64,000 bases of DNA from PVC group bacterium (GTDB taxonomy: Bacteria; Omnitrophota; Gorgyraeia; B26-G9), in assembly GCA_024231215.1 (NCBI GenBank), contig JAAEQR010000072.1, positions 257,210 through 321,209 of the forward strand. Reading direction: 5' to 3'. The position numbers and the translations under genes are program-made. The notes beneath the pieces were generated by a model. That model ran no database searches and was not told the origin of the DNA. It saw only the letters and a list, made by a program, of their open reading frames with translations. Positions 5,781 to 50,978 of the stretch are shown here, piece by piece (position 1 is the first letter of the stretch; each line of letters begins with the position of its first letter).

Positions 5781-7691
5781 ATGTTTAGAAAGGTATTATC
5801 GGTATTAATTATTTGTTCTTTTATGTTTTCTAATGCTTGTTTTGCTATGCCCGCAGCCGCTATACAGGCGAATGTGGATAATATGGCTTTGCAGAGCTTA
5901 GCGCAGGAATTTAAAGGAAATGTAGACCAAAAATTCGTAGATGCTTTTAAAACTAAAGTTGAGGCTGATAAAGCGGGATTTAGGGTATTATTGACTTTAT
6001 TAACCGGTAATAAATATGCTGATGATCAAGCAGCATTCGACACGATCATGGAAATGGCAAAAACTAGTAAACAGGACGGGGATTCGGTAAGTGATTTTTT
6101 ACTTAAAATGAAGATGAAAGTGGAAAAGGGTGTTGTTACCGGAACAACCCAAGGTGGTGTTACTATTAGTGCTACTGAGGAAAATAATAAGGTAGTAGTG
6201 AGTGACTCGAAAAGCTTAGAAGCAGAGATTGCTGCTGCAATACCTGGAAAAAATGCGCACAATGGTCGCTGGGATGTAACAGCTGAAGAAAAAGCTACTG
6301 GCGAGCTTATTACACTTGATGTTATCAGTGATGAACAGATGGAAGCAAGCGAAGAACTTACAGCTGCGGAATATAAGGCAGTAGAAGCAGCAATTGCAGA
6401 TATTAAAGCTGATGCTGAAAAGAATGCAGATAAGATGACTGTGGAAGAAAAAGCAGCAGTTGACAGATTAGACGATATGCTGAAAAATCATCAGATTAAA
6501 TCTATTGTAGATGTAGTAGAAGCACAGCATAAATATTCTTTTGGTGTAGAAAAGGAAAATGCTGATAAAAGCTTTACTTTCGGAGTTGGCAAAGCTATTC
6601 TTTCTCATGAGAATAAAAAAGTTTTAAAACAGAATATTTTACACTCAGCTTTAGCTGCAGGTAATGAAGGAAGTTTTGAAGCGCATTTAGATGTTATTAA
6701 GCGTCAGGCTGTGATTACTTCTCAGGATGAAGCAGACGAAGTTGGTACAGCGATGAATAAGTTGAAAAATGATATGTTGAAAAAAGTCACAGTAGATAAT
6801 GTTATTAAAGAAGGCAAACAGCTTAATACAGCTGAAAGTAAAAAAGTATTAAAGGATGCTGGTCTTGCGCAGGGTGATATGACCGATGACGTAATGGTGG
6901 ACTCGGTTAATAAAGTAATTGCAGAAGGATATGACCAGGATGTTCGTATTCCTATGATTTCATCTGGAAAAATATTCAATAAAAAGTTAAGTGCTGTTAA
7001 ATATAGACATGGTAGAGGTAGTAAAACTTCAGCGGCGTTGACGGTTAAAGAATTGACTGATATGATTAAAGAAGGAAAAGCTACAGCTTTAACTAAAGAG
7101 GTTAGTACTTTCCTTGATAAAAGTGTGGATGAAAACGGCGAATTAATGCCGAATACTGTTTTATCATCTCTTTTAACAGTTGCTCAAGAAGTAGGAAAGA
7201 ATACAGAGATAACTGGACCTAAACCGTTGAATATTGTTGATCTTGATGATACATCTTATGCTCGTTTAGAAGAGATTATTAAAGTTTGGGATGTTGCGCA
7301 TGTATTTAATCTTCAAAAAGGAAGTGCTAAGAGTTTGAATATTAGCGGAAAAGACTTGTCTATAATTCATACTGTCCAGGAACAGGATGCTATGGAAAAA
7401 GTAGACGGTGCGTTTTACCTGCCTTTGGATGGTAACTTGTTAACTCAGATGGCAAATGGTGAGGCAGTAAGTGAAATCTATGATATCGGAAGTGTATTAA
7501 TCGCAGCAATGACTCAGGATGTTACTAAATTGGGATTAACTGCCGATGCACAAAGTAAACTGAAAGCTCTTAGAGCAGACGGTAAAATAGATCTTCAACC
7601 GGTACTTACCGTAAGAGTTGCTGACGATGCTGCTTATCAAGATAGTTTTAAGCAGTTTAAGATTACATTGGCCCGTTTAAGAAAGGCGTAA
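5781..7691 (+). CDS. Secreted hypothetical protein (Ala/Lys/Glu/Val-rich, ~637 aa)
   Basis: The ORF track starts at a GTG at 5730, but AGGAGG at 5771-5776 sits 4 nt before ATG 5781 (MFRKVLSVLIICSFMFSNACFAMPAAA), a typical signal peptide. No recognisable catalytic motifs. Confidence 0.7.
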   Translation: MFRKVLSVLIICSFMFSNACFAMPAAAIQANVDNMALQSLAQEFKGNVDQKFVDAFKTKVEADKAGFRVLLTLLTGNKYADDQAAFDTIMEMAKTSKQDGDSVSDFLLKMKMKVEKGVVTGTTQGGVTISATEENNKVVVSDSKSLEAEIAAAIPGKNAHNGRWDVTAEEKATGELITLDVISDEQMEASEELTAAEYKAVEAAIADIKADAEKNADKMTVEEKAAVDRLDDMLKNHQIKSIVDVVEAQHKYSFGVEKENADKSFTFGVGKAILSHENKKVLKQNILHSALAAGNEGSFEAHLDVIKRQAVITSQDEADEVGTAMNKLKNDMLKKVTVDNVIKEGKQLNTAESKKVLKDAGLAQGDMTDDVMVDSVNKVIAEGYDQDVRIPMISSGKIFNKKLSAVKYRHGRGSKTSAALTVKELTDMIKEGKATALTKEVSTFLDKSVDENGELMPNTVLSSLLTVAQEVGKNTEITGPKPLNIVDLDDTSYARLEEIIKVWDVAHVFNLQKGSAKSLNISGKDLSIIHTVQEQDAMEKVDGAFYLPLDGNLLTQMANGEAVSEIYDIGSVLIAAMTQDVTKLGLTADAQSKLKALRADGKIDLQPVLTVRVADDAAYQDSFKQFKITLARLRKA

Positions 7692-9638: not shown

Positions 9639-12575
9639 ATGTTTCACAGAAAAGAAAATCGTAGTTTTTCAAAATTAATTGCATTTATTCTCATTCAGGC
9701 GTTTGTATTGGTAAACGCGCCGATAATTTATGCCGGAGGGTTATTTGACCGTAGTGCGCAAGATATCGCTTGTTTATCTCCCCAGATGCATTTAGGTGCT
9801 TCTGCATTACAGCAGGCGTTTACGGTAGAACCGGAAATTGGGCCGAGTAATGACAAAACTATCAATCTCGATGTTCTGAATCAATTGCTTGATTCCGTAG
9901 AGCTGGATGAAAACTTATTGGCTATGGAAACGTATTTAAGAAAATTTCTATCACATGATGATATCAAAACTGATACCAAGAGTTGTATTGAAATGCTCAA
10001 AAAAAGAGGTTTATTATCTCCAGTTAGCGAAACAACAGTTGAGAATTTAGCAAGAGCTATGAAGCGGGGGATTACAAGGCAGGCAGATTTGTTTCGGGAT
10101 GATATTGTAGATAAGTCTAAATCTTATGTGCGAGCAGAGCAAACAACGCTTCGTACCAGGCTTGCGACTTTAAATTATCTTAATAACAACGCAAAAGACG
10201 CAGAACTTAATTTAATCAATGCGTATAGATGGACCCAAGGTGATAATACAATTCTAAACAATATTTATAATGTATTACAAAAAGCAGCGTTGGTTAGTAT
10301 CGAAGTAGGAGCTTTATGGGAAAAGATGTTATTAGAAGACGACGGAGACAAAGCAGATGCATTCCAGCAAATAACAGAGATTATTACTTCGCAGGAAGTG
10401 GCAAAAGCTAATCAGCTATTAATAAAGGAAATAGATACAGATTGTGAAAACAATAGGGTGGATAATGCCAGAACTAAATTGACTCAACTATTAACTAAAC
10501 AAGAGCTTTCTTTGTATGGTAAGAAAACATTAGTAGAAATCATAAGTGATAAACTTTCTTTGTCGGAAGAACAACATACTCAGGTTGTTGAAATGTCTGA
10601 AGATGAAATATCCGATGCAGATATAGTAGAGTCGATAATTATTAACCGACTTTCTAATAAGCTAAATAATCTGAACAAGTCACTAGAAATTAATTTAAAA
10701 GGAAGAATGTTTGATGCGGCTTTGGCTGATATGAAAAGCATTGAAGATATAGGTGTTTTAGGTTTTGAGGAAATGAGTGAATTTAGAGATGCACAGGTAT
10801 TAATGGATTCTGTTCTGTTCAAAGAAGCAAAATTTTGGGCAGACACAAGTCTGATTAGTTTTAGTCAGGGGGATAAATCGGAAGCTAATACATCACTAAA
10901 GAATATGCTTGAGATATACGCGCATGAAGCAACTGTATTAGAGACGCGGGGTGCAATATTTAACGAGTTAAAATATAAGAAGATGGTTACTGATGATGAC
11001 AGTGAATTTTTTACGGACTTGGAGAATGCAAATGATGCGTCATCTAGGGAAAACAGTATTAAAGTTATTGTAGCAGCGATAGAGAAGAATATTGAACCGG
11101 GAATAGAAATCTTAGCAGATAATGCGAAATCATCAGTGTATGGTGATTCTACTAGAGATGATGAATATTTGACGTCAGAACAGAAAACAGAATTACTGAG
11201 AGCAAAGACAGATTATTTGCGAGAGACGATTATAAATGCTGTATCTCGTGCATATGATAAAGCAGATGTGGCCGAAGGAAGTCTTTATATGCAACAACTG
11301 GTTGATCTTACAGCTGAGAATAAAACCGATGCAGAGTTTGTTGAGCAGACGGCAAACTTAATAATCAATACCTGGTTTGGCGGTAGTGCGAGATATAAAG
11401 GTAGAGTAATGTCTTTTTTTAATGAATCAAATACATCAGAAATAACTAAATTGATTAATGATCAGGTGATTCCAAGTAAAGCGGAAACGATAATTTCTTT
11501 AGTAAAGTGGGGTTATGATCGGGGAGATATCAAAACCGCGGAAGAATATCTGACTGAAGTATTGATGCTGAGTATTTCAGCCGGAGTTACACAGAGTTCG
11601 AGAATGCAAATTATAACTTCATTGAGAATTAATGGATTGGTGCGAGATAGTCTGAATCCTATTTTAACTAGCGATCTTGAAGCAGCGGTTAATGCAGAAG
11701 ATAAGGCTAAGAGTATTGAGAATATAGTTGCATATTTAACGGTAAATATCGGTCTGAATACAGTACGGGAAGATGTCCCTCAGATGCGGCGTTATTTGCG
11801 CAAACTCCAGACAATAGATGCGGGGAACAGCTTGCTTGTGCTACTTAATTCTTTTTTTGCAAAAGGAGTTTCAGCCGAACGCCAAAAAGAATTGGTGGAT
11901 ATGCTGGTGGCCGAAGAAGTAATTAGTGAAAATGAAAAAGATGCACGCTTAAATGAATTAACTAAAGCAATTGGAAAGTCTGAAAAGGTCTATGAGATAA
12001 GAGATATTATCCTTAAACAGGGGATACTGGTTGAAATGGCCGGCCAAATAAGTTTGGCTAACTGGCTTTATGAACAACTGGAAGCTGACAAAGCTGGCAG
12101 CTTTTTAAAATTGGTTTTGGATATTTGTGATGTAACTCCGACTTTAGGAAAAGATATATTTGCTTTGTTATCCGCGGTAGGATTAGAAAATGCAGATGAT
12201 ACACAAAGAGAGAATTTATATCAAATCCTGAGTAAAGATGATACACTTAAAAATGAAATTATTGAAACGATCAATTATAATCAACAGATTGAAAAAGCAG
12301 AGCGGTTGATGAGACTAATAAGCCTTCGCGCAGCGGATAAAAATGATATCGGTGGAAAACAAATGTTTAAAGAAATTAAACGCTTGCTTAAAATTTATTG
12401 TGATGAAGGATCGTCCGAGCGGTTAAAGAAAAATATTTTCGCATTAACATCTAGATTAAGTAATTTAAACATGAGAGCTTTGCTGGGAAGTATCTTCTCC
12501 TCAGTTTCTAAAAAAATAGAATCTGAGAAAGCTCCGACGGAACAAGTATTAAGTATAGTTGGTCAGGCGATATAA
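9639..12575 (+). CDS. Large hypothetical exported protein (978 aa) with the conserved N-terminal 'ILIQAF' hydrophobic motif
   Basis: GGTAGGAGG RBS before ATG; N-terminus MFHRKENRSFSKLIAFILIQAFVLVNAPIIYAGG (basic n-region, hydrophobic core, A-x-A-like end). The rest is helix-rich with no recognised domain. Confidence 0.75.
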   Translation: MFHRKENRSFSKLIAFILIQAFVLVNAPIIYAGGLFDRSAQDIACLSPQMHLGASALQQAFTVEPEIGPSNDKTINLDVLNQLLDSVELDENLLAMETYLRKFLSHDDIKTDTKSCIEMLKKRGLLSPVSETTVENLARAMKRGITRQADLFRDDIVDKSKSYVRAEQTTLRTRLATLNYLNNNAKDAELNLINAYRWTQGDNTILNNIYNVLQKAALVSIEVGALWEKMLLEDDGDKADAFQQITEIITSQEVAKANQLLIKEIDTDCENNRVDNARTKLTQLLTKQELSLYGKKTLVEIISDKLSLSEEQHTQVVEMSEDEISDADIVESIIINRLSNKLNNLNKSLEINLKGRMFDAALADMKSIEDIGVLGFEEMSEFRDAQVLMDSVLFKEAKFWADTSLISFSQGDKSEANTSLKNMLEIYAHEATVLETRGAIFNELKYKKMVTDDDSEFFTDLENANDASSRENSIKVIVAAIEKNIEPGIEILADNAKSSVYGDSTRDDEYLTSEQKTELLRAKTDYLRETIINAVSRAYDKADVAEGSLYMQQLVDLTAENKTDAEFVEQTANLIINTWFGGSARYKGRVMSFFNESNTSEITKLINDQVIPSKAETIISLVKWGYDRGDIKTAEEYLTEVLMLSISAGVTQSSRMQIITSLRINGLVRDSLNPILTSDLEAAVNAEDKAKSIENIVAYLTVNIGLNTVREDVPQMRRYLRKLQTIDAGNSLLVLLNSFFAKGVSAERQKELVDMLVAEEVISENEKDARLNELTKAIGKSEKVYEIRDIILKQGILVEMAGQISLANWLYEQLEADKAGSFLKLVLDICDVTPTLGKDIFALLSAVGLENADDTQRENLYQILSKDDTLKNEIIETINYNQQIEKAERLMRLISLRAADKNDIGGKQMFKEIKRLLKIYCDEGSSERLKKNIFALTSRLSNLNMRALLGSIFSSVSKKIESEKAPTEQVLSIVGQAI

Positions 12576-14676: not shown

Positions 14677-14712
14677 TTAACGGTTTGTGTGAGATGCTTT
14701 AGAGAGGAAATT

Positions 14713-15099
14713 ATGGGACAAGAAAGAAGAAAATACATACGTTTAAAAGTACACAGTTCAGTGGCTAATTGCCGTTTGTTGTCAATACGTCAAAGGGACC
14801 CGTGTAGTACCTTTACGGTCTGGCCGGTAAAAGACCTTGGAATTGGAGGGCTATCGGTTCATACTGAAGATGAAGTTCCTTTGGATACCTTAGCATATCT
14901 GAATATGGATCTGGATATCGCTATGCGTACCGTAGGAGTTCTTGCCAAGGTGATCTGGCGTAAGGCAAAAGATGTAGGCTATGAGCTGGGGCTGCAATTT
15001 TGCGGCTGGCCCAAAGAAGATGACCGGGATGCCATGGCTGATTATATTGAGCATCAGATCAGTAGTGAATCTGATTCTGAAGCTATAATTTTAGGATAA
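14713..15099 (+). CDS. PilZ-domain protein (putative c-di-GMP receptor), ~128 aa
   Basis: MGQERRKYIRLKVHS has the RxxxR motif (RKYIR); DLGIGGLSV is a D-x-S/G-x-x-G variant of the second PilZ signature. Probable start ATG 14713 (purine-rich GAGGAAA upstream) rather than track start 14689. Confidence 0.7.
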   Translation: MGQERRKYIRLKVHSSVANCRLLSIRQRDPCSTFTVWPVKDLGIGGLSVHTEDEVPLDTLAYLNMDLDIAMRTVGVLAKVIWRKAKDVGYELGLQFCGWPKEDDRDAMADYIEHQISSESDSEAIILG

Positions 15100-15120
15100 A
15101 TTAATAAGGAGACAATTTTG

Positions 15121-18100
15121 ATGAAGTTTCTAGGTTTAAAACATAGGATGTTAAAACCCAAAATTTGCAATAGAACGTGGCGAAGAACACTAATCTTTTG
15201 GGCTCAAAAAAGCTACAAAAAGCTTCGACAAACAATAAAGTGTGCCTGCGTTTTTTGTAACTTTTTGATCTCCAAAATATCAGCACTCTTTATCCCCGAC
15301 TATCGCAAAATCTGGGTTAAAATAATTGCAATGACACTTGTTCAGACATTTCTGATTGTGAATATCTGTGGACCAGTACATGCCCAAATTAATAATAAGG
15401 AACAGACTAATTCTGATTATCTGGCGCCGCAGGTGATTTTGAATCATGATACCATCCGAAATGCTTTTATTGATATTGTAGAAAATGGTAATATATTCGA
15501 TGGTCTTTTTGAAAGTGAAAATCAATTTAGCGAGGGGGCAGGGAATGATGGGAAGGTACATCATCAATCAACTAATATTTTTAATAATTTTTCAAGTCCG
15601 GTTTCTATCCCAAGTGATTTCGCTAACGGAAAAATAATCAGACTGGATAGCCCCACAGCACCACCGCCACCCGAGAATTTCAAACAAGTTTTTCCAACAG
15701 GTTTTAATGAATTTAAATTTGGTTTGTGGGGAAGATTAAGTTGGAACAAAGAAGATTTAGTTCAACACATGAAGAAATATGGAATAATTGTAGATTCTGA
15801 GGATTTTGATAAAGAACAATTGCGTAGGGTATATAACACGTTTGTTGTAGCGGTTGAAAAAGATAAAGATTTTACAAATGCATGGTTTATGTTGGGAGAA
15901 ATTCATATTTCCAGAGAAGATATGTATTTTCAGGCAGGAGAAGAGAAACCACACAAGCTTCTTTTCCCGCATGTTACAGAATATGAGACAAAAATAATTT
16001 TCTATAATTCTTTCTTTTATATTAATAGAATGACAAGAATTCATTTATTTGATGGAAGAAGCGTAAATGACCGCAAGAAGAATTTAATAGACACCGTTAA
16101 AATGGCTCATGATCTTAGTGTGTATTATGAGGGGAGGGGATTGCCGGTTAAAACTACTGATTTAGAGAGTGCTCAGGCGCAGGATATGTTTGAAAAATTA
16201 GATATAGTTGGAACTGAGTCCACAATAAAATTCATTCTTGATTCGATGAAAGATGAACCGTATGATGATATCAAAATAGCAGTTCCGGAATTAATATCGA
16301 TACAAGCTTTTAAAAACGCATTGAGGATATCGAGAATTAGTTATGAAGAGCTGGGTAGAGAACAAATGATAGAGCTGCTTACAAAGATAAATGAATTGGC
16401 ACAGGAAGATATGCTTAATAAGAGTCGGGTTGACGATGAGCTTTTAAATAGAGCAATATCTGAGTGTTCTAATGTTTCTCTTAGTGCTGGAAAAAAGAAA
16501 ATGCTTATTAAGAGTCTAAATAGTGCAATTGATACCTGGAAAAATGAAAAAAAGTATTGGGGAGTTAGAGAGCACTTTAGTGGCGGGCGTCAAATTCGGA
16601 CATTTCTTTTGTATCCATTTGGCATCCAGGAGTTAGACAGACTTCGAAATGAATCGAATGGATATAAAAATCCTCGTGTTTGGAAAATCCGAGAAGATGA
16701 AGATTCTATGGCTATGTATGAATTGTTATGGAGATATTCGCCTAAAAACCATGAGATAGAGGAGGGGCATTTACAGCAGGTTTTTGCGGCTGATCCAGAT
16801 AATCCTGTTCTAGATATTCCTTTAAAGGATGGATCACCTGATGATATACTTCGTTCAATAGTTGAGATTGCGGTGACTGATTGGAAACAAAAGGCGGCAG
16901 GTCTTTCGGGTGGATTTGTGTCTGCTATGAAGGGAATAACCAATACATTGGGACAGAATGGTTATAATGCGTATTTGCCTGGGCCGAAGACAGAAGGGTT
17001 GCTTAAAGAAGTGCATGCAAATGTTCCTATTTTTAGGCATGGTGGGTATATGGCAGTTGCATTAGATATATGGTTTTTTTATGTTTTTAGTGCCAGAGAA
17101 AACTTAAATGTTAATAAATTGAATCATATTGTAGAACATATTTGTAGGACAAGATATACATTTTTGAATGAAAGAGGAAGAAATCTAGTTAGGACTCATA
17201 TTCAGGAAATTGATAATAAACATCGCAAAGAAAGAAAACTTCGAACTCGCAATTTGAAGTTAAAAGAGGAAGATGATCATTGGGTAAATAATGGGAGTGG
17301 TACATTATTCCCTAAATTATTAAATGTAATGATGGGTATTCCTTTTTTTGCTGTAGAAACTATGATTCCGACAACATTAAAGGCTTCAACTATAGTTCAG
17401 CAAAGTCAGGGAGGTGCTGGTGGAGCGAACTTGGGTGCTTATCTGGTGGGAGGGATAGCTGTTGGATTTTCTGTTTGGATATATAATAAATTTTTTAGTC
17501 AAAAAGCAATTCGGAAAGAAATCGAGAGACTTTCTTTGGAAGCAATGGAGAAAAATGATGTTTCTAAATTAAGAAGATATTATGACAAATCTAATTATAA
17601 ACGTAAGCAGATGATTATTAATACGGTTGGAATAGCCGGAGAAGAAGCAACTAATGAGGCCTTTCTTCAACAACTTATAGCGAGTGAAGGTGACGATGCA
17701 TATGCTAAAGCTGTTGTGGATGGAGTCTATGAATTTTTGTTGCTTAGAACTAGCGATGTATTGTCGGGTACTATATATGAAATATCTGATTTATCATTGC
17801 AGGATTCTGTTTTACTAGAGTTCTTAGTAGAAGATGATATGGATAAAAAATATGATATAGTTATTGAAGATGAATTTGCTGTGGCAGATGAATTGGTCGA
17901 AGTTTTTGGGGAGTTGCAGCAAGAGCAAGCTGATTATGCACTGGGTAACAATGAATTTCATAAAGGAGAATTTTATAGGATGGTCAATGAGAATCCTGTG
18001 CTGAAAGAATCCTTGATTGACGCTGGTAGAAAAAAAGGTGAAGTTCTTCAGCGGTTTGCTATAAATAACTGGATTGCGGTACAAGCTAGAAAAAACAAAG

Positions 18101-18312
18101 AGGATGCTTCAATAGTAGTTGAAAAGTTACTTTCACCGGAAGCAAGAAGAAAAGTGGAAGAAATAGGGGATAATTCTAGTGATCCTGATTTTAGAGCTGA
18201 AGCTGAATTAGCGCTTATGCTGGATGAAAAATTAACAGTTGGAACATCAAGAAGCAGTGTAGATTCGAGAGAAAAAGACTCATTGATTGCAGTTATTGAG
18301 GCTGCAATTTAG
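15121..18312 (+). CDS. Large hypothetical membrane-anchored protein (1,063 aa). Basic Cys-containing N-terminal extension, then the conserved 'LVQTFLIVN' hydrophobic motif, then a later Gly-rich TM segment
   Basis: AAGGAG 9 nt upstream of ATG 15121. Motif RKIWVKIIAMTLVQTFLIVNICGPVHAQ at residues ~62-90; internal hydrophobic GAGGANLGAYLVGGIAVGFSVWIY at nt ~17400-17480. No catalytic motifs recognised. Confidence 0.7.
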   Translation: MKFLGLKHRMLKPKICNRTWRRTLIFWAQKSYKKLRQTIKCACVFCNFLISKISALFIPDYRKIWVKIIAMTLVQTFLIVNICGPVHAQINNKEQTNSDYLAPQVILNHDTIRNAFIDIVENGNIFDGLFESENQFSEGAGNDGKVHHQSTNIFNNFSSPVSIPSDFANGKIIRLDSPTAPPPPENFKQVFPTGFNEFKFGLWGRLSWNKEDLVQHMKKYGIIVDSEDFDKEQLRRVYNTFVVAVEKDKDFTNAWFMLGEIHISREDMYFQAGEEKPHKLLFPHVTEYETKIIFYNSFFYINRMTRIHLFDGRSVNDRKKNLIDTVKMAHDLSVYYEGRGLPVKTTDLESAQAQDMFEKLDIVGTESTIKFILDSMKDEPYDDIKIAVPELISIQAFKNALRISRISYEELGREQMIELLTKINELAQEDMLNKSRVDDELLNRAISECSNVSLSAGKKKMLIKSLNSAIDTWKNEKKYWGVREHFSGGRQIRTFLLYPFGIQELDRLRNESNGYKNPRVWKIREDEDSMAMYELLWRYSPKNHEIEEGHLQQVFAADPDNPVLDIPLKDGSPDDILRSIVEIAVTDWKQKAAGLSGGFVSAMKGITNTLGQNGYNAYLPGPKTEGLLKEVHANVPIFRHGGYMAVALDIWFFYVFSARENLNVNKLNHIVEHICRTRYTFLNERGRNLVRTHIQEIDNKHRKERKLRTRNLKLKEEDDHWVNNGSGTLFPKLLNVMMGIPFFAVETMIPTTLKASTIVQQSQGGAGGANLGAYLVGGIAVGFSVWIYNKFFSQKAIRKEIERLSLEAMEKNDVSKLRRYYDKSNYKRKQMIINTVGIAGEEATNEAFLQQLIASEGDDAYAKAVVDGVYEFLLLRTSDVLSGTIYEISDLSLQDSVLLEFLVEDDMDKKYDIVIEDEFAVADELVEVFGELQQEQADYALGNNEFHKGEFYRMVNENPVLKESLIDAGRKKGEVLQRFAINNWIAVQARKNKEDASIVVEKLLSPEARRKVEEIGDNSSDPDFRAEAELALMLDEKLTVGTSRSSVDSREKDSLIAVIEAAI

Positions 18313-18352
18313 CTTATGGGGCTGAAAAAAATAAAATAAATAGCATATTTGT

Positions 18353-18523: not shown

Positions 18524-18552
18524 TTGACAGGGCCTACTTTTTATGATATACT
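18524..18552 (+). promoter_or_regulatory. Near-consensus sigma70 promoter for the giant gene: TTGACA - 17 nt - (TGa)TATACT
   Basis: ttgaca at 18524-18529 and tatact at 18547-18552 with TG two nt upstream (extended -10-like). Predicted TSS ~18559, giving a ~190-nt leader to ATG 18749. Confidence 0.6.
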
Positions 18553-18660
18553 ATAAATGTCTTAAAAAAGAGGGTAAAATATTTATAACTGATTGAAAAT
18601 AAATGTTGTTAGAAAAACAATTCGACAGTTCCGAAAGGACTGCTTTAAGGTTGGGTGGGT

Positions 18661-18704
18661 GGGCTGAAGATAGAAATTATCTTCAGCATGCCCTTTTTTG
18701 TTTT
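18661..18704 (+). terminator. Intrinsic terminator/attenuator inside the 5' leader of the giant gene
   Basis: gctgaagata (18663-18672) / tatcttcagc (18678-18687), a perfect 10-bp stem with loop gaaat, then atgccc + tttttt g tttt. It lies between the promoter (18524-18552) and the start codon (18749). Confidence 0.6.
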
Positions 18705-18748
18705 CAGATACTGTTACAAAACGCACATCTACAAAATAAGGTGAAGAG

Positions 18749-21700
18749 ATGGTGACTCGAATATTTCATAGTATAGTCTACTGCGGGCACAAATTATTGC
18801 ACATCTGCAGCGTTGTGCTTCTTCAGCTTTCTCGTCGTACCGCAAAGGGTACGCCTCCGGAAGCTTCAGTCGCACGCCTTGCATCTGCACAACACTTTGT
18901 GTCCTCGCGACGACAATACCATGAAATACCCGAGTTGCGCGCAAATCGAAAATACAAATTGTGGTTTCGAATCGTATCCGCGATACTTGTCCAGGCCTTT
19001 TTGGTTATGGATATCGCTATGGCTTCGGGCGGAGATTTGAGCTGGTTAAAAACACCTAAAAATCTATCCCGTAGTGAAAGTAAAATTTCCCATCTTTCTC
19101 CCACCACAAAAATCGATAAAGGAGTTTTCCGAAACAGCGTTGAATTATGGAGCGCTCTTGCTATAGCAATGAATAGTCCTGATAATGAAGAGCTGCGCAA
19201 GCCTTATGGGATTAGTGTTGTTGATGCCCACAATAGAATAATGTCTATAACGATGGAGAAGGAAGTATTATTTATTTATCGTCTTGATGATGCGCCAATC
19301 GCTTTTAAATTAAACCCCGTTCTTGAAACTACAACTAATAAGATGAGATTGGGTGAATTTGAACTTGCGACAGTACCGATTGAAGAAGTAGTTGAAGTAG
19401 GCGGTGATTTACTTGGATATGAAAGAATTATTACTTCGCAGGAGTTTGCAGAACGCTTAGATGCTTTAAACAGCGCGCCAGAGTTTAATGAAGAAGAGGC
19501 TTTGGAGCTGGTCAGACAAATGATATTAGCGGCTGGGATTACCGGAGAGATTAAAACTATAGGTAGGGATCAATATGCGAAATGGAAGCCGGAGAAATGG
19601 GATGTGCAAAAAGAAGCGACCAAGCTGATGTATAAAGGTTGTGTAGTTAATATGCCGACTTCGGCTGGAAAGACGATTGTATTTAATGCTACAGGGATTT
19701 TACGTAATCTTGCTAATAGATTACAAAAAGATAAGAAACGCGAAGTAACGATTGTGCATACTGAAGAAAATTTGGTAGAAAGAGATGCTATGCAGGCAAG
19801 CAAAGTAAATCAAAAGTTTAAAATGACTACCGGATATGTAATTTCTCAGGATGGAGAACGTAAGGCGTATATTGATAAAAATGGAGAGATGGAGGAGACT
19901 ACAGAGCAAGATTTGTATAAGAATGCAGATATTGTTTATATTCATGTTTACAATTTTGTGCATAGATTTCAAGCTGATTGTTATACCGCTAAAAAGACAG
20001 AAGATATCGCTTTGCTTTGGGGCCAACAGACTTATTTTATGGCTTTTGATGAAGGTGATGTTCCTTTAAAACATCATATGTCTACGCCGAGTGTTCTTTC
20101 CGGTGGTAATGATTTGATAGAGGGAATTAGGAAGATGCGATTGCATTTTGCGAAAAAGACAATGCAGATACAGGAGATTGTTGATGAACTTATTCAGGGT
20201 GATTTGTTAGATCCTGTTACTGGTAAGGCATCTAATAATTATTGTGAAGTACATAAGGATTCAAAGACGGTTAATCTGACCCCGAACGGTAAGGATTGGC
20301 TAAGAGCTAAACTCGAAGGAGTGAAAGAATATACTGAAAATAGGAATACAGAGATGGGAGATTTTGATCTATGGTTAGACTTTACAGAGTTGGCTTTATC
20401 TGCATATCGTTGTTATAAGATGGGTGTAGATTATAAGATAAAGGCTGATGCAAATGGCAATAATCAGATTGTAATTATTGATAAAGATACTGGTATGGAG
20501 TTGCCCGGACGGCGCTGGAGTCATGGTGTGGATATTGCCGTGCGTTTAAAAGAAAACCGTCAGGGAACTGAAAAACTTGAAATCAAACCGGATCAGATGA
20601 TTATTGCTTCAATGATGTTGCCGGAAATTCTTAGCTCTCAATTGGGGCTAGTTTCCGGGATTAGTGCAGCTTCTGCTACAATTGGTGAAGATACGGCCCA
20701 GATGTATGATATCAAATGGAAAAATCTTAGTGATCGTACAGAAGAATCAAAAAGAGAAGAGCGAATTGTAGTAAGTTCTGATCAAAAAACATCAGAACAG
20801 CATGCACTGGATATGATTGAGGTTTTAAAAGCTGGTAGTAAGGTAAAAGACTATATGCAGAAATGGGGCATGCCGGATAAAGATAAAACAGGTGCTGTAA
20901 TTATACGTTGTGATTCGGAACCTGAAGGAGCGAAGTTCACAGATGAGCTTATTCAGAAGACTACTTTAGGGCAAAGGAATATACTCAGAATAAAACGAGA
21001 TGGTACAATCGTAGATGCTAATGGTGAGCAGATAAAAGGGGCGAGTTTGCAGAATTTGGATAGTTTAATTGCAAATGATAGTATAGATAATATCTTAATT
21101 GATTTCAGCTCGGGTAATCAGAATATGTTTACTGATTTGACGGGAGAGAAAAAACTGAAAGATAAAATTGCGACGCTTTCTAAAGATAAGCGGGTTATTA
21201 TTGTCTCCACAAACTTAGTTGGTCGTGGGGTGGACTTTAAAGGTGATAACATGGTGTGTATTTCTTTGAGCTGTGATATTGCCGAAGAAAGTGAAATTCA
21301 GCTTAAAGGACGAGTTGCTCGTGACGGCAGAAAGGGGTACTTTTTTGGTTTTTGGTCGATTCAGGATGAAGTTTTTGTGAAATACAAAAAACTTATTCCT
21401 GACTCCCGGATGCATTTTTCGACAAAAGTAAAAGATGGTAAAACGCATATTTTTACCCTGACTAATGATCCTAAGAAATCAGTAGAAAGTGAAAGGCATA
21501 TTGTAGGAATGAGAGATGTTATTAATGATCATATCCAGCAAATGCGTCGTGAACAGAAAAAATTCGGAGAATCTTTATGGGATCCGGGCGATGATTCTGG
21601 ACATAAAAAGGGTTTTGCCAAAGAATTTGTGGAAAATAGATATCGTGTGCTTGTTCGCGGGCTACAGGGGGTGGGGATCCCTGAATTGGATGATATCTTA

Positions 21701-24700
21701 GGAGAGCTATATTACAAATGTGCACAAATAGAAGGGGAAAAAGGTGATGTTGATCCTGTCACACTTGTTGAAATTTTGGAGAATGATTTTGGAGTAAGTG
21801 GTTTTTCTGAGGAGGAAGCGCAGAGTGTTTTAAATAATAATGATTATAATTTAGAGAGGTCTTTGCATCAAATCCTTACTGAATTATTGCAGGCGAAAAC
21901 CTTAGATGTGTTGGACCAAGAATGGAAGAGCTTTATTACACAAGCAGACTGGATTAAACATCGTTTAGAAAAAGAACCTTCCCGCAAAGAACAACGTGGA
22001 AAAGTACAAGCGCAGCAGATCTATGAAGAAATTAAAAATAAGATAGCAAAAAGTTATGCGCAAACACAAAAGACAATAAAAGAACGTTTGGCAAAAGAGG
22101 TGATTTATCAAGCTGCTGCATTTGCCGGAAAACTCCCCACAGATAAAGAGCTAGCTGATTCTAAGAATGAGAGGGAAAAGGAGCAAGAGAAAGATAAGAT
22201 TCCTTTAATGGATCGTGCTAAACTTTTTCTGGTTAAGTTTATTCCTTCGGCTGTAGTTATGTCTTTAAGTATTATGACAGCGGTTGGGATTGGCTATGTT
22301 TTTAAAATTCTGAGTGTTGAAGGTGTTAAGGGGGTAGCTGCTTTGCCTATAGCCGGAAATATATTTGCTTGGTTTTTAGGGTTAGGTCCAATTATCCTGG
22401 TTACAGTTACGATAAGCACAATATTGATAGCCTGGGCGTTGAATTCCCATATAAAACGTTTGTCCCAGGTTGATTCGACGATTGGAGAGATGGCTGAAAT
22501 AGTTACCCAGGCATCTGAGAAAAAGATAAGTGAAATTGGTATTGTTTCAGCTAAGTCGACTTTACGAAAAGTGTTAACTGTAACAGCTACATTTGCTCCA
22601 TTTGTTGCGGCCATGACGTTATTTTCTTTTATTGCTAGTGTTCCTTTTGTTGGAGTTGTAACGGTACCTATACTTGCTTCTGCGGTGTCTGGGGTTATCG
22701 GGATTGTATCTGCTTCATTACTTTTGTTTTTGTCTCGTAAAGAATTAAAGATAGCTCCTACTGTTCCTGTGGGAGCAGGAGCGCAGTTTATGCGTGGCCT
22801 AATTTCTGGAACAATAACAGTTTTAACTGTAGGGGCATTTCTCTGGGTTTCTTCCTCTGTTCTGACAAATCCTGTTGCCTGGGGTCTAATAATTACCCTG
22901 GCTAGTTCTTTTATTGCTAATAGAATATTTAGAAAAGCAACAAAAGTTCCATCTTCAAATATTTTATTGCCTTTATTGGGATTTGTAACCGGAATAAGCC
23001 TGGGGCTTGGAATTATTTTCGGTGTGGTTCCTTTGTTGGGGGCATCGGTACTTAAAACCCTTCCGGGGGCAATGGCCTCGGGAGCAATGAAAGGTCAAGG
23101 GGTTCTTCAGATTCTGGCATATATGGCGTCAATGTTATTTTCTTTTAAACTAGTTAAATTTACTTTGGCTCAATGGAAGCTATCGGAAAAAATAGCGCGT
23201 GAACCTATTGTAGCAGATGGACAGCCAGTAGTAGATGTGTCAAAACAAAAAAGATTAGCTTACTTGACACGAGCATATACACTTAATGCAAGAATGGTAA
23301 TGATGGGTCTGGGCGCGGTTGTAACATTGGCTTTGTTATTTAATACTGGCTGGCTGGCGTTTCTTGTTAATCTGGGGATTCCGATATGGATATCCCGGGT
23401 TGTTGCGGCATTTCCTGTTTTTGCTGGGGCTATATTTATTGCTTTTCTTACGCGTAATATTCTTGGGGCCAGAAAGAAAGTATTTAATTATTCTTATTTA
23501 AGCAAACGTAGAGTATGGAATTTTGTTAGCCAAAGCGTGATAAATAAAGGTAATAGCTGGAGTTTTTTAACTATCCAAGCACAATTAGAACGTGTCGGGC
23601 TTAAAACATTATCTGAACATATCACTGTCGGTATAGATGATTTTAAAGAACGGGTTGCAGATAGTAAGCATGCTTTAGGTTTAGCGCATGGTATTTTGAA
23701 TAATATGGCTCAGAATAGTGGTATTAATGAGAAAGACAAGCTTATGCAGTTATTTCTTACTGAACTGCAGAATTCTGAGCCTGGGGATGGAAGATTCTTT
23801 TCGCAGAAGGAAATAGATAGTATTATTTCTCAAATGATTGCAAGAAGTCATGACAAATTGCTAAGTAAAAAACAGCGACGAGTGTTTAGAAAAGCAATGA
23901 CAGCTGTTTTGGTGGAAATGGATTTAGCAAAAGTTGGTTTAGCAAGATTGTTACATATCGTTAAAGATCAGGAAAACATAGATAAATTTCTTGATTCTCT
24001 TCTTATGCCTACGATGGGAGTTCCAATGCTTGCCACAGCACCAATAGCTGCGGTAGTGAGTCAGAGTCAACAAGAGAGCAGTCCTTATGATAAGTGTAAA
24101 ATTGATGTAAAAGATATTTCTAAAGATGTTCAAGATTATTATGTATCATTAGCTGAAAAGGCATTTAGGGTGTCTTCAGTTTCTGCAGATGATACGACTG
24201 CTTTTGCTTTAGATTATGATTGGGCTCAACGGATGAAATCATTTCAATCGGAAATGAGAATTACTAGAGCAGAACAACAGGCAGGTGATGAGTTTGCAGG
24301 GCGTATGGAAGCAGCGCATCAGAAAATTAAAAAAGCAGATTCTGAAAAAGAACGAATTGAGGCAAGGCTGGAATTAACCAGAGTAATTCAAGAAGCTGGA
24401 TTATCTGTAATCAAGAATATTGATCTTTCCCCAGAAGAATCTAAAGTTCTAGAGCAGGTAACTCAGAAACTTGAAGTAATAACAACATTAATAAGTATCC
24501 GGGAAAATATGGCGAGGGCTACCTATGATTTTAATCAATGGAGAGAACGCGAAGCAACAGAAGATGAAATAGTTCAATATGAGAAAGAATCAACAAAAAC
24601 AATGGCTGAGTTGCAGGCAGTGTTTGTTAAAAAAGCAAAAAGCGCCAATATAGATCCAGAATCTTCGACTGATGCAATTATAGAGCAGAGAAAAAATATT

Positions 24701-27700
24701 ATTGATTCCCTAGATAAAATCTCTGCATATATCATAATGCGAAAAAATGAAATTAAGACAGCAGACGAAGAAATCTTATCTTTAAAAATGGATAACAGGG
24801 ATCTGAAATTATTAAGACAGGCAGAGGATGCTTTGGATAAAACAGAAGAAGCTAAGGCGTCTGATAGAGATCAAACCTTGTCTCCAAATAAAACTGTGGA
24901 GTCAGATAAAGCTCAGTCAGCACCACCTCCGAAAGAGGAGTCTTCACAGAGACCAGTTGATGGAATTATAGTAAAGCCGGTGCGAGAAGAAGATGAATCT
25001 TTTGCCGGAGGGGTAAGCCGGGGCTTTTTTAATCAGGGCGCTAGTCTGCGAGATATATCGGAAATACTAAAAAGTCAGGATACTTCGGCGGCGGAAACAT
25101 TCAATGCGCTTATAAATTTAGGCGAAGGCCAGAGTGCAAAAAAGGTTGTCATCGCAATGCAAGAAGAAGGTGGCTATTCGGAAGAGGTTACTTTTTCTGT
25201 AGCGGTAGATGTATTGATGGTTAATCGCGGATTTTCTATTGAAGAGACTACCATGATGCTTTCAGATCCAATTGTCTCTGGTCAAAATATGTCTCCGGAA
25301 CAGATGAGAAAATCAAAATTAATTGCTAAGCTTTTGCATGATAAAGATGCTAATAATCAAGATCAATTGCGTAAGGCATTAGATATGTTACTACTTTTAC
25401 CGGGACAGTTGAATGTAACGAAAATGCCTCGACAGTTTGATGAATTTCTAAATCTTACGCCAAGATTGGACGAGAATCATTTAAAAGATAAGATTGCTGG
25501 ATTACGCAGTAAACTTGATAATGGCCAGAAGATAACAGAAAAAGATGTTGCAGAAGCTCATGAGATAGCCCAAGCTGCTTTAAAGACGTTTGCGTTAACC
25601 CAAAAGGCCCAGGAGCGAAAACAACTTAAAAAAGCAGATAAAGTTATAAGCCCAGAGGATAAGATAAAGCAAAAGACATCTCAAGATGATTCGGCTGGAC
25701 TGAGTGAATACATAACCGAAGAACTTACAAAGAGCATATCCGGGCGAAAGATATTGAAAAAATCTGCTAAAGGTATTGAGTATTTTATCCTGGTTAGTAA
25801 AGAGCTTAGATATTTGATCTCCGCAATACGAGCATATCATAGTGATGATATTAAAAGGGCAGAAGAGAATCTCACAAATATGTTCAAGTTAGCTTTTAGT
25901 AATAAAGAGGCCCGCGATTTAGTTTTTGAAGTTCTGGATGATATTGATTATGTTACTGCAAAGGGAAAAGAAATTTACAGTGCGAGAAGTGTCAAGGGTG
26001 AAGACAAAGATGCGCTGATTAAAGAGCTGGTTGAAAAAATTACTGCCGGCAGAGAACATTTTAAAGTTTACTATGATAATCTAAAGACTATTTTACAAAT
26101 TTCTGCGCGTGAGCAGGGGAATGAAGAACAATTAAGACAACAGCTGGAGATTCCGGTCCGGGATATCTTAAAACATTATTTTGCAGAGCAAGAGACGCGG
26201 CAGTATATTCTTAAAATTTTAGATAAAGCAGATATTGTGGGTTCAAAGGAGAAAAAAGCTTTTGCGAAGATAGATAATGTTACGGATAGGAATGCGTTTA
26301 TTGACAAGACAACCGCAATGATTATTACAGACTTGGCATCTCCTGAGAAATTGAAAAAAATGAAAGAAGCTTTATCTACAGTAGATGATTTAATTATAGC
26401 CAGACAGTTGGAAAAGTTGATCAGTACTGATACTAAGAAGGCTGATGCTGTAGCTACTAGTACTCCGGCTGAAATTGCGGTTGAAACTGCTACACATATG
26501 TTACCGCCTAATCTTGCCGAAGGATATAATCAAATTGCCAAACAGCTTGGACTGAAAACTTTAGCTGTCCCGGAAGATTTTCTCGGCCTTCCTATATATA
26601 AACCAACTATACAAGCTATAGAGACTGCAGAAAAAGGTATAACTACTATAGCAAAGAAGATACAACCGGTATTACCAAAGATTGAACCGCAGGGTAAAGA
26701 AAACTGGGAAATGCAGGATCTCTTGGTAATAGATAATTTGCGTAAATTACTCCAGGGCGGGCAGGATTCGACAGGTAGTTTGATACAGACTGGCAAACTT
26801 GAAGAATCTCCGGAAGTTCAGGCAGCAAAGGCGCGATTGCGTGAAGCTATTGCACGCTATGAAGAATTAGATAAGGCTTATTCAGCTGTTAATCGTGAAT
26901 ATAACCGTTATTTTGGCATGATTCAGAGTGGAAAATATTTTATGAGTCTTAAAAAGGCAGTTATTGAACAAAACGCTGTAGCAAAACTAAAATTGCAGTT
27001 GCAAAAACTAAAAGAAGTAGATAGGAAATTCAGAGAAACAGAAAAGCAGTTTATTGAGGATTCGATTGCTGATCTGGATGAAAAAATCAAAGGACTTTCA
27101 GGCCCGGATAGTGCAATAGTTGTAAATGACAAAATGCTTCAGGAAGCATTAGCTAAGCTGGAAGAACAGATCAAGCAAACAGAGGAAGATATTAAGTCAG
27201 CCGGAATAACAATGCAGAAGTTACGTATTTCATTAGCAGATTGGGAGCAGGCAAAACAAGATATCAGGGCAGGCGAAGAGATAAATCTGGCTAAACTGTT
27301 GGGTATGGTAGAAGAATCAGACCGTACCTATGCGAGAAATAAATTACAGGCTTTGGTTGCTGATATTGCTCAGTTAGATGCGGAAAAGGGTAGATTATCA
27401 ATTGATCCTAATCGTACTTTAATTATGACCAATGGTCAGATTAACGCTAATTTGGAGGTAGTTGGACAGGCAGAGCTTGACGAACGGGTCTTAGGGCTTA
27501 TGATTGCGGATAGCACAAAACAATGGACAGTCTATCGATGGGGCAATCGCCTGAGTCTTACACAGTTTGAAGGAGCTCAGACGATTAAGCTTCAACATTT
27601 TGTTTTTGGACAAGATGCACAAAGCATATCAGAGCGGGAGAAGATGTTTAGAGATGCGTTTAGATACTGGAGCAGTCAGATAGAGTGGGCAGAATCTGAC

Positions 27701-30700
27701 ATTAAATATCTTAGACATGACCGTTTTAATGATCCTAGTTTATCAGAGGAAGAAAAGGCAATAATCTTACGGCAAGTAGAGAACTTGGAAGATAAAATGC
27801 AGTTTGCTGTGGATACAATTGAGGATTTGAAAGAAGATCAGAAATACTGGGATCCATCAAAATTAACAGTTGATAAAAGTTTTGCAGAAAAAAAACGGTT
27901 ATCTGAAAGAAAACTAGGATTTGTTCAGAAAAAGGTTGTTTTCTTTAATGATCTTATTCCTCTTTTAAAAGATATGCGTGATTTTGACTTTAATCAGGCT
28001 ACAGAAGGCAGGACTTATTGGCAGACGGAAATAGATGAGAAAACAGCAGAGCTTGGCTTGATCGAAACCGAACTTACTGCTTTACAAGATCAATTGAACG
28101 TGGATCCGAATAATACGACTTTAAGGCAACAGATTGAAATTAAGAGGCATCAGGTTTCCAATGTTTTGTTATATATTGAGTACGCTGAATTATCCAGAGT
28201 ATCCGCTGAAAGTAATTTGCGCTATATTGGTTCATTGGGCGGAACAGAAAATAAGTCAAAGGTAATAGAGCGGTTTGAAACAGTTGCTAAAGCTGGGGAG
28301 GATTATTATTCAGATACAGTTGATTTGCTAAATGAGATGCTGAGCAATCAAACACTGGTGATTGATACAGCTACGGCTTACTGGCAAAATATACGCACAG
28401 AATCAACCCAGCGTTTAGAAGAAATTAGTGGTTATTTAGATCCGAATAATACAGCAACATTAGCGCTTGATCATCCGGATAATCTTTTTAATGAAGCAGG
28501 TATTGCGGTTTCAATTGACCAAAGAATAAGTTTTCAGATAAAAGTATTGGATCCGAATAATACAGAAAAAGATGCACAAGGTAACTATATTTCCGCAGCA
28601 AAATCTAAAGAGCAGGCATTAAAAGAGCAGGCAATCTATCGCCAGAGAATTCAAGCTGAAGTGGCAAAGCCGGAAGAGGAAAGAGATGAAAACCATGAAA
28701 GTCTGTTATCTCTTTGGAAAACAGAGATCGCTAAACGAAATATATATATGCGAAACGCTGACCTGCAAGTCAAAAAAGCTAATATATATTTGGGAACACT
28801 TGCTTTATTAAAAACAGCTTATCAAGCGGAAGAAAATTCTTTAGGAGTATTAATTCCGTTGGTGCGCAAAGAACTTGATACTTTAGCAAAAAATAAAGAA
28901 TATCTTTTGGGCACTTCATCGGAAAGCCCAGAGAGCTTGGTTGACAGGAATATTAGTTTGATTAATGATGAACTGGCTTTTTATCCGATAGCCAGAGAAG
29001 CTGCGGTTAGAAAGTTAGAGTGGTTGGAAAAGACAAAGAAAGACGCTGCAATTATTTTAGGAGAGATTTCACCTGAGAACCAGATAATAGCAGATGACTT
29101 GGCAAAAGAGCACGAAGCAACGAAGCAAGAATTAGAAAAACAATTAGCTAAAATCCAGGAGGCAATACAAGAAATAAATGAAGAAATTAGCAAGGCTGAA
29201 GGCTGGCTGGGAAAACTAAATGATAAAGATCATGATGTGCTGATCCGGCTGCGAGAGACCATGGAAACTCGCTTGAATATATTAGAAGATACTATTAGGC
29301 AAAAAGGAAAATTGCTTTATCAGAGTAATCTGCTTAAAGAGTCTCAACGTCAGATCGCTAGTGAGATGGCGGAACTTCGCAAACTGGGTGTGTTGGATAT
29401 TGCCGTAGCCAATATTGGCGAAGAGCAAAAAGATTCGTTCCCCATGGTTTTGGATAAGAATTCATTAGAAAAGTTAGTACGTAATATTCTGAATGATCCT
29501 AATCGGCCGCAGGATTTGGTAAAGGCAGCTGCCGGAGATCTTTCCTTGGACAATGCAAAGGGTATTCTGCAGAAAGTTGGACTGCACCTAAAACGGTTTA
29601 GTTTTGGTGAAGATTATTATATTGTAACGCATATTGCCAGCGGGGAGTATCAGGAGATGTATCTAAGGCTGGGCAACTTTTTTGGATCTGGAGAGCATGT
29701 AAAGATAAGCCCGTTTATTTATACGGTAATGGCGGATGAACCGCGGCGTGGAGCAGAAGGTATTGGATTGGTTATGGATGTTGATCCTCAAAACATGCCG
29801 ATTCATTACGGGTTAATAGTGGATGTTTATAAGCCTAAGTATCAGGAAGTTGGTTATGATTATACTTTAACTGAAGAAAAGACCCGTTTGATGATTACCC
29901 AGGACTACACGATGCTTATGGTTCCGGAACAGGATGATAAGGGTAAGCCTACGGGTGAATATAAAGCGTTTCTCGGCGCAACTATGTTTGCGGATATGCC
30001 GATGAATATGAAATTTCAGGAAGATATATCTTCTTTTGGCGGAAGCGTACGCGGAGATTTAAAACTTACCGAGGCATTTAAACTTAGAGCGGATTTGAGC
30101 GCTATTCTTTTAAGAGATCCATATGATGAAAATTTCGAATGGCAGTTTGGAGATCTCATGTTCCCGGATAGTATCAAGAAATATAAAGCTTCTGTCCAGG
30201 GACAGGAAATGCAGCTGCTTTCTGAACGGCTGGCTTTAGAAGTAGATATGTGGAAACTGCTCAAAAAAGAAGGTAAAAAAGATGAATTTACGATGCAGTT
30301 TTTCCTGCAGCATGAAGACAATACAGAAGGTTATACTCAGACTTCTTTTGGGGCAGGACTTACCAAGGCCTTTGCTTGGAAATTAGTACAGCCAATAGAA
30401 ACTAAGGTTGTATTGGAAGGTGCGGTTGGATCTGAAACAGAAGATATTAAAATTGGTATAGACAATCGCATTGGCGGTGATGATGGCGTTGATGTTTCCT
30501 TGTCCGCTAAACTCCGGGGTGAAAATCGCAGTTATCTGGCTAAAGTATCTAAGGATGTTTTTGGTGTAAATATGGCGGTGACTTATGGAGATGAATATGG
30601 GCGGGGAGAGCCTGTTTTTGGATTTGAAGCTGGCCAAACAGTTAGTAAGGAAACCGTAATTGCAGATTCAATAGATGCAAGAGATGCGGGGAAGGATATT

Positions 30701-50941: not shown

Positions 50942-50978
50942 TAAATATTTTCAGGAAAGGCAAAGAAAGGCAAAGCTC

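Follow-up and report, generated by a model that had tools for sequence, protein, structure and literature searches.

The 5' region of a giant gene in a bacterium of the PVC group (lineage Omnitrophota; contig JAAEQR010000072.1) raises the question of what kind of element precedes, and apparently overlaps, the start of this very long coding region. Within the 64-kb stretch of DNA that was analysed (37.6% GC; hereafter termed the window), the interval 18524-18960 had been described in a sequence-only reading as a promoter followed by a small hairpin with a GNRA loop, an intrinsic terminator and a GC-rich island at the annotated start codon, and it had been interpreted as a candidate riboswitch or attenuator. 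Comparison with related loci confirmed the observation and supported its interpretation in part: the riboswitch was rejected, and the attenuator is supported by conservation, not proven. This comparison showed that the interval consists of two separate things, a native promoter and leader (18524-18751) and an insertion (18752-18934). The explanation that we consider best overall, with somewhat better than even confidence, is that of a native promoter with a terminator-bearing leader, followed by a lineage-specific palindromic insertion that is translated as part of the giant protein.

The window proteins, which are represented in NCBI by records including MCP4649173, MCP4649175 and MCP4649180, were compared with homologous proteins and loci from several sources. 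The first 450 residues of the giant protein, used in a word-indexed protein search, detected no relatives, and neither did the 900-residue N-terminus as a single query against genome and metagenome contigs. A search of 1.84 billion representative proteins with full HMMER yielded 205 relatives of the giant protein, seven of which match it from query residue 62-68 on with their own residues 2-11 and open with M(L/F)(Q/N)xxK(K/R)YN(L/I)WF...AFL..DIA.AAGGDLRWLK. An alignment of the N-terminal module (A1) was used as query to retrieve further loci, 11 of them from GTDB species genomes, three from JGI metagenomes and two from ENA. The 11 GTDB-derived loci (L001-L011) comprise nine records labelled Candidatus Omnitrophota and two labelled Planctomycetia. 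Among these, L001 (JBDRPX010000003.1) represents a true orthologous locus, because the protein match is collinear (46% identity over 1,840 residues, query residues 65-1880) and the gene order is kept, with homologues of gene 15118..18312 and of the PilZ gene upstream of it. The resulting sequences were arranged in a leader alignment of 12 upstream regions from the -35 hexamer through the ATG (A2; the window and 11 relatives) and in a protein alignment of the giant N-terminus with 11 homologues (A4; L001-L008, L012, L013 and L015). The z-scores of the long hairpins refer to dinucleotide-shuffled sequences as background.

The features that define the insertion are the following:

18749..50941, + strand: giant open reading frame (ORF) of 10,730 codons, SecA-DEAD type
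18738..18751, + strand: Shine-Dalgarno (SD) sequence AAGGTGA, spacer of 4 nucleotides (nt) and start codon ATG (18749-18751); the SD residues G, G, G and the ATG are invariant
18752..18934, + strand: in-frame palindromic insertion of 183 nt (61 codons, no stop) between codon 1 and the conserved N-terminus
Insertion junctions: ATG/GTGACTCG and CCCGAG/TTGCGC
18935..19108, + strand: signal-anchor module, conserved at the N-terminus of the giant protein, L63 RANRKYKLWFRIVSAILVQAFLVMDIAMASGGDLSWLK...SHLSPT (alignments A1 and A4)

At the insertion site, a gap of 61 residues is present in 11 of the 11 homologues of alignment A4, and the relatives run from the ATG directly into the conserved N-terminus, which opens with M-x4-K-K-Y-N-L-x-F in the aligned homologues. 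The first methionine of the window protein is aligned to that of all 11 homologues, and TTG 18935, which is codon 63 of the window gene, corresponds to codon 2 of the relatives. In the loci L001-L011, an in-frame stop codon is located 4-45 codons 5' of the ATG that starts the conserved N-terminus. Since the SD sequence, the ATG and several blocks of the leader are conserved across the family, ATG 18749 is the family's ancestral start codon rather than a chance upstream ATG. The boundaries can alternatively be drawn around a 181-nt element ACTCG...CGAGT (18755-18935) with TG on each side; its removal restores ATG GTG CGC GCA AAT CGA AAA TAC AAA TTG TGG TTT, which specifies MVRANRKYKLWF and is collinear residue by residue with MLQSTKRYNIWF of the relatives. 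These alignments showed that 18752-18934 is a palindromic insertion of 183 nt between the ancestral start codon and the conserved signal-anchor, and with respect to the loci compared the island is lineage-specific, without a counterpart in any relative found.

The nucleotides 18752-18938 fold as a single imperfect hairpin of 66 pairs (-70.8 kcal/mol, z = -7.1), the 24-nt outer arms of the element being 83% complementary and the apex being formed by GUACC-GCAAAG-GGUAC (18837-18852). The palindromic character explains several properties of the island, namely its high GC content (0.49-0.54 across 18760-18940 versus 0.376 in the window), the reversed GC skew, the open mirror frame on the minus strand and the apex sequence, which the sequence-only reading had already pointed out along with the GC-rich composition. 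The same reading had regarded the island as open in four overlapping frames and as structured RNA rather than coding sequence. The ORFs 18813..19040 (+ strand), 18729..18944 (- strand) and 18823..19200 (- strand) are indeed present as listed, but only two of the six frames run through the entire island without a stop, namely that of the gene and its palindromic mirror; likewise, the island is strongly structured as RNA or DNA, but it does not recur as a leader element in the relatives, and with its frame preserved it is best regarded as translated. That long hairpins are merely common in an AT-rich genome was considered and rejected: many hairpins of similar length are found among minimum free energy folds, but only two have a strong z-score. 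Thirteen other such hairpins in the window have z-scores from +0.5 to -2.0, the exception being a second insertion (-4.55), and in about 125 kb of sequence from related loci no hairpin goes beyond z = -2.8. A scan of folding energies regressed on GC content did not by itself single out the island; the signal lies in the single-hairpin shape and in the shuffle-based z-scores.

The second insertion is located in the neighbouring gene upstream:

15151..15312, + strand: in-frame hairpin insertion of about 162 nt (54 codons) in gene 15118..18312; the hairpin spans 15149-15324

This hairpin (-42.7 kcal/mol) is the sole other significant long hairpin of the window. The encoded protein reads MKFLGLKHRM, followed by 54 residues and IWVKIIAMTLVQ, versus MRALNLKNRMCFKITAFIILQ in the L001 orthologue, where the 54 residues are represented by a gap. 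The insertion is thus placed between the conserved decapeptide MKFLGLKHRM and a signal-anchor like that of the giant protein; the same kind of signal-anchor is encoded by the genes 15118..18312 and 9639..12575. Local alignment of the two insertions gave scores within the shuffle distribution and hence no shared sequence.

Since the island is free of stop codons and keeps the frame, it is best read as a translated in-frame insertion, and the second insertion must be read through, as the conserved decapeptide of the neighbouring gene is kept 5' of it. In shuffled sequences of the same composition, a frame without a stop arises with a probability of 0.064 (first insertion) and 0.025 (second insertion), to be multiplied in each case by 1/3 for the length, and the joint chance that both are open and divisible by three is about 2e-4. 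Ribosomes would start at ATG 18749 and translate an N-terminal extension of 61 residues, with a very stable RNA hairpin beginning 3 nt past the AUG. The predicted energy for opening the ribosome-binding site is 13.4-16.5 kcal/mol at this AUG and drops to 10.6-12.9 kcal/mol when the insert is deleted, so that the cost of initiation would rise modestly. We infer that both insertions are translated as N-terminal extensions and that the structure of the first one makes initiation moderately more costly. It is highly improbable, by comparison, that the island is left untranslated, with TTG 18935 as the true start codon, the hairpin serving as a structure of the 5' untranslated region that brings the SD sequence near the start or hides it, and the open frame being accidental. 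A start at this TTG, aligned as it is to codon 2 of the homologues, would give MRANRKYKLWF and therefore a normal N-terminus, and stop codons are rare in a GC-rich region. However, UUG 18935 has no SD sequence and is buried in the basal helix, where opening would require 19.6-21.3 kcal/mol, whereas the conserved SD sequence and ATG at 18738-18751 are intact and initiation there reads through in frame; the necessary translation of the second insertion and the low joint chance of two accidentally open frames likewise argue for translation.

The promoter and the leader are composed of these features:

18524..18552, + strand: sigma-70-type promoter with -35 hexamer TTGACA (18524-18529), 17-nt spacer, -10 hexamer TATACT (18547-18552) and TG at 18544-18545
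18553..18622, + strand: A-rich start of the leader with the conserved A2 columns ATAAATGTCTTAAAAAAG, ..TTGAAAATAAA.., GTTAGAAAA and ACAATT
18626..18642, + strand: small GAAA-loop hairpin CAGUuCC-GAAA-GGACUG, weak (-6.1 kcal/mol, z = -1.7)
18649..18663, + strand: invariant G-rich tract GGTTGGGTGGGTGGG, the 3' part of which is the base of the terminator stem
18657..18693, + strand: terminator-type stem-loop with GGGU/GCCC base, 2x2 internal loop, perfect 10-bp stem and GAAAU loop
18694..18704, + strand: U tract TTTTTTGTTTT directly 3' of the stem, U6 (18694-18699) followed by GUUUU

The near-consensus promoter that had been proposed on first inspection is present: it agrees with the consensus at 11 of 12 positions, carries the extended -10 motif TGaTATACT, represents the top-scoring site within 17800-19800 and is immediately preceded by A-tracts (18506-18520). 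The leader 18524-18751 has homologues in 11 Candidatus Omnitrophota loci from metagenome-assembled genomes, where they precede giant genes of the SecA-DEAD type. Invariant in all 12 leaders are the TTG of the -35 hexamer (T1, T2, G3), TG-n-TATACT, the G residues of the SD sequence and the ATG; the pair of promoter hexamers was found by pattern in 10 loci. In the A-rich part, RNAalifold detected no helix, and the corresponding pattern TGNTATACTWWAAATGTNTTAA occurs just once in the window. The GAAA-loop hairpin noticed previously does exist, weak as it is, and is specific for the window; the relatives show TAATCTGAACAAAT at this place and no aligned hairpin. Additionally, an inverted repeat, CCTACTTTTTATGATAT / ATGTCTTAAAAAAGAGG, surrounds the -10 hexamer at 18533-18573 with both arms in conserved columns of the 12-leader alignment, and may represent a candidate operator. 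The promoter region is nearly identical in the window and L001, although the proteins are 46-50% identical.

The terminator module was aligned from six sequences (the window, L002, L003, L006, L008 and L015). The tract GGNTGGGTGGGTGGG is invariant in these sequences, one N position aside, and occurs once per locus. The perfect 10-bp stem consists of the arms GCUGAAGAUA (18663-18672) and UAUCUUCAGC (18678-18687), and RNAfold adds the pairs GGGU/GCCC (18657-18660/18690-18693), by which the stem abuts the U6 run and reaches -21.9 kcal/mol (z = -4.3). A simple consensus scan missed this terminator because the T run begins 6 nt past the perfect stem. RNAalifold yielded a consensus helix of 16 pairs with 96.9% of the cells paired, versus 43-58% in a control with the stem partner slid by 1-3 columns. 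Compensatory changes on both sides are found at four pairs of the stem, and the covariation score was matched in none of 500 shuffles; the sample of six sequences is small, and most of the compensatory changes set the window (GCUGAAGAUA/UAUCUUCAGC) apart from the other five (GGUGAAAGU(U/G)/(A/C)(A/G)CUUUCACC). The comparison showed that the leader holds a conserved stem-loop with U tract, preceded by an invariant G-rich tract, and the hairpin with U6 that had been placed in front of the ATG is thereby borne out by compensatory changes in five related leaders. By predicted fold and U6 run, the stem-loop of the window is a strong intrinsic terminator.

Another conserved block, ..TAGGGGCYAAGG..RCACTTAA.., is present in leaders of the relatives between the terminator module and the SD sequence and is missing from the window. 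It is located at 4460-4560 in L002, 230-330 in L004, 4900-4995 in L008, 4165-4262 in L015 and 1-78 in L016, and just 5' of the ATG in L003 and L006; RNAalifold gave no convincing consensus fold for this block. The loci L010 (about 4880-4960) and L011 (about 340-420) belong to a paralogous family with the same N-terminal module, and their leaders share another conserved hairpin, TTACCTGTTGNAGTGATCTT...AAAGATGACGAACAGGTA.

From the end of the terminator (about 18704) to ATG 18749 there are 45 nt, in which a consensus promoter scan detected no promoter-like site. As the 10,730-codon frame is intact, expression of the giant gene would therefore appear to need read-through of the terminator, and the conditional attenuation of the 32-kb gene that had been suggested is a reasonable deduction from the arrangement of the sites. 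RNA polymerase starting from the strong promoter would mostly stop at about 18700, and only read-through transcripts would reach the SD sequence and the ATG. On this view the leader element would be an attenuator that limits or gates the giant gene, or it would simply be leaky; the attenuator reading is plausible, although neither an antiterminator nor a ligand was found. Leader attenuators based on intrinsic terminators include the protein-dependent antitermination of long operons by LoaP, RfaH and EAR-type elements. The window resembles them in that its promoter is followed, ahead of the start codon of a very long transcription unit, by a conserved GC-based stem and a U tract, and in having a conserved sequence element just 5' of the terminator. 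Unlike in these systems, the window yielded neither an alternative antiterminator helix nor a leader peptide nor any factor-binding motif of a known kind, no NusG paralogue is present among the window proteins scanned and no Rfam family was matched.

With respect to the origin of the insertions, in-frame palindromic elements have been documented in Rickettsia (review PMC10969869). The insertions of the window resemble these Rickettsia palindromic elements (RPEs) and intragenic transposable elements of the miniature inverted-repeat kind (MITEs; ERIC, BOX) as imperfect palindromes of about 160-180 nt that form one long hairpin with terminal inverted repeats, and they resemble the RPEs (PMC10969869) in lying within coding sequence, keeping the frame without a stop, adding an extra peptide and facing an empty orthologous site in the relatives. 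They differ from RPEs and MITEs in that repeated copies, a sequence common to the two and a clear target-site duplication were not found, and from RPEs in their host, a member of the Omnitrophota, and in their position at the extreme 5' end before a signal-anchor, in one case right after the start codon. The likeliest origin would be a selfish or foreign palindromic element, MITE- or RPE-like, that was tolerated where the gene is permissive, ahead of the signal peptide. An invertible, phase-variable segment was rejected, as the interior is itself palindromic, so that inversion would change little, and no recombinase gene is present among the neighbours scanned. A translational bypass of the T4 gene 60 type was rejected as well: matching codons for take-off and landing are missing, as is a stop following the take-off site.

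Several observations weigh against the combination of a native attenuator-type leader and a mobile insertion, and they bear on the rival explanations. A BLAST search of the window, 16 related loci and plasmid and phage collections found no second copy of either insertion, the two insertions are unrelated to each other, and their mobility is putative; the sole candidate for a target-site duplication is a 2-bp TG (18753-18754 and 18936-18937), with a chance of 1 in 16. The two hairpins each occupy the 5' end of a gene, the genes being adjacent and of the same signal type, and no hairpin is intergenic, a placement that hints at selection or targeting over random selfish insertion. On the side of the leader, the tails that follow the stem in the relatives are U-rich but weaker than the U6-G-U4 of the window, and according to the 12-leader alignment the terminator module is missing in the closest orthologue L001 as well as in L004, L007, L012 and L013; L005 carries another hairpin with UUUU at this position. 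Moreover, RNAalifold, the leader alignment and the ORF list revealed no conserved antiterminator pairing and no conserved leader ORF or leader peptide, and an alternative terminator/antiterminator pairing, for which a check had been suggested, is thus without a conserved helix. The placement of the hairpins leaves room for the main rival, which we consider unlikely though worth keeping in mind, namely that both were selected as regulatory devices, for instance as RNase III targets, as thermosensors or to throttle translation, at the 5' end of genes whose products are very large secreted or membrane proteins. Their equivalent positions before the signal-anchor of two adjacent genes, the predicted rise of the opening energy by about 3 kcal/mol caused by the first hairpin and the lack of sequence kinship, as convergent selection on structure would give, are consistent with such a role. 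However, the second hairpin begins 35 nt past its ATG and thus outside the initiation footprint, the effect predicted for ribosome-binding-site opening is modest, L001, as the closest orthologue, and the remaining relatives do without either hairpin, and a single sequence per hairpin offers no covariation support for a selected structure.

For the upstream part, a distinctly unlikely reading takes the segment bounded by promoter and terminator (about 18559-18704) mainly as the gene of a trans-acting small RNA, about 140 nt long and with a function of its own, and leaves the giant gene to be expressed only by incidental read-through. Such a segment is bracketed by a strong promoter and a strong terminator, its 5' part is conserved in sequence and not in structure, and the sub-threshold Rfam matches all belong to small-RNA models with a terminator. 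However, in six of the 11 related loci (L001, L004, L005, L007, L012 and L013) the same promoter leads into the giant gene without this terminator module, and therefore the promoter belongs to the giant gene; an alternative promoter in the 45 nt before the ATG is likewise missing, and the small-RNA reading does not exclude the attenuator model but can coexist with it. A more far-reaching variant, very unlikely in our estimate, combines two proposals: the tract GGNUGGGUGGGUGGG, with three GGG runs and one GG run in the layout of a guanine-vacancy G-quadruplex, would be the sensor of an undescribed attenuator class gating 30-kb giant genes of Omnitrophota, and the in-frame hairpins would form a new Omnitrophota family of palindromic elements that are translated and that target genes for secreted proteins at their 5' ends. 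Formation of the quadruplex, or binding of a protein or a guanine nucleotide, would then free the stem base from the terminator and permit read-through; according to ViennaRNA, a G-quadruplex of the G tract is disfavoured (-1.4 to -2.7 kcal/mol versus about 12 kcal/mol gained by the stem base). Almost certainly wrong, and already contradicted, is the view that the leader and the island form a riboswitch of the GEMM or cyclic di-GMP (c-di-GMP-I) type, in which a ligand chooses between terminator and antiterminator. The presence of a terminator and of PilZ genes flanking the giant gene had made this view attractive, and it shares with c-di-GMP-I (GEMM, RF01051) and c-di-GMP-II riboswitches a context of nearby PilZ genes and a GNRA-loop hairpin 5' of the terminator. 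Unlike in these riboswitches, no covariance-model match was obtained at any threshold tried: Rfam cmscan at the gathering score gave no hits in the whole window and none in 12 related loci, and a search of 18300-19200 at E-values up to 10 gave five weak matches to small RNAs and small nucleolar RNAs (E 0.12-3.8), with no c-di-GMP-I/II or other riboswitch among them and none in the island. The island lies 3' of the terminator and cannot decide termination, and the string likened to the c-di-GMP-I core is part of the lineage-specific insertion. It forms one long hairpin and not a multi-helix aptamer, and it is absent from all homologous leaders; of the structures expected to recur in homologous loci, the terminator stem is kept in five, whereas the island is missing in 11 of 11 and the GNRA hairpin is not conserved.

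The giant ORF is a SecA-DEAD-type giant gene of the Omnitrophota, as judged from its length, its domains, the downstream PilZ gene and its Omnitrophota relatives. Near the N-terminus, Pfam detects SecA_DEAD (2.2e-11), SecA_PP_bind (3.8e-10) and Helicase_C, and the protein contains many hydrophobic segments. One PilZ gene (14689..15099) is located just 5' of gene 15118..18312 and another (50925..51335) just 3' of the giant ORF, followed by genes for an MFS transporter and glycosyl hydrolases; the three nearby PilZ genes that had been counted are reduced to these two in the window by Pfam. Giant proteins of Omnitrophota often contain GGDEF domains and have PilZ genes next downstream (West-Roberts et al. 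2023, 10.1101/2023.11.21.568195), which is a further point in favour of c-di-GMP control. The window agrees with the SecA_DEAD giant genes described there in the 10,730-residue ORF, the three domains near the N-terminus, the hydrophobic segments and the order of the immediate downstream PilZ gene, MFS transporter and glycosyl hydrolases. Unlike the account in that study, in which a term search for promoters, terminators and leaders gave no occurrences, the present data include the leader motif and the insertions.

A few additional observations concern the surroundings. An N-terminal module is common to the three proteins encoded by 9639..12575, 15118..18312 and the giant gene (window positions 9639-9740, 15310-15400 and 18935-19108). 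It consists of K..(I/L)..I.A..L(V/I)Q.F(L/V).., a small-residue site and an 'xLAPx' motif, and no Pfam family covers it in these proteins; it has the look of a lineage-specific signal or anchor that would serve a dedicated export route. In L001, an additional PilZ gene (4126-4491) is found between the homologue of gene 15118..18312 and the giant gene, where the window has only the promoter and the leader. A terminator 3' of gene 5730..7691 (about 7770-7815; GGGAGGGCGGGCGAAACA...TGTTTCGCCCGC, then T7) is also G-rich on its 5' side, and the intergenic stretch 7621-7810 has an overall z-score of -5.1. The coding stretches 1681-1870, 20621-20810 and 55441-55630 fold unusually well (z -4.3 to -5.0), as branched structures and not as single hairpins, and compared with L001 the stretch 20621-20810 does not represent an insertion.

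Both elements are new examples of kinds already known, a leader terminator of the attenuator type and an in-frame palindromic insertion. For genome annotation, they imply that the 61 inserted residues of the giant protein and residues 11-64 of the neighbouring protein are not part of the family N-terminus, and that GC-rich islands open in multiple frames are not to be taken for riboswitches. In-frame palindromic insertions now extend past the Rickettsia-type cases, and a gene of 10,730 codons is seen to carry a stable palindrome right behind its start codon without being destroyed. Nothing has been reported on the regulation of giant genes in uncultured Omnitrophota, and the giant-gene literature examined mentions neither promoters nor terminators. 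The leader provides a concrete handle on this regulation: between the window and L001, conservation is higher in its promoter than in the encoded protein, and the terminator-bearing module with its invariant G tract can be searched for in metatranscriptomes.

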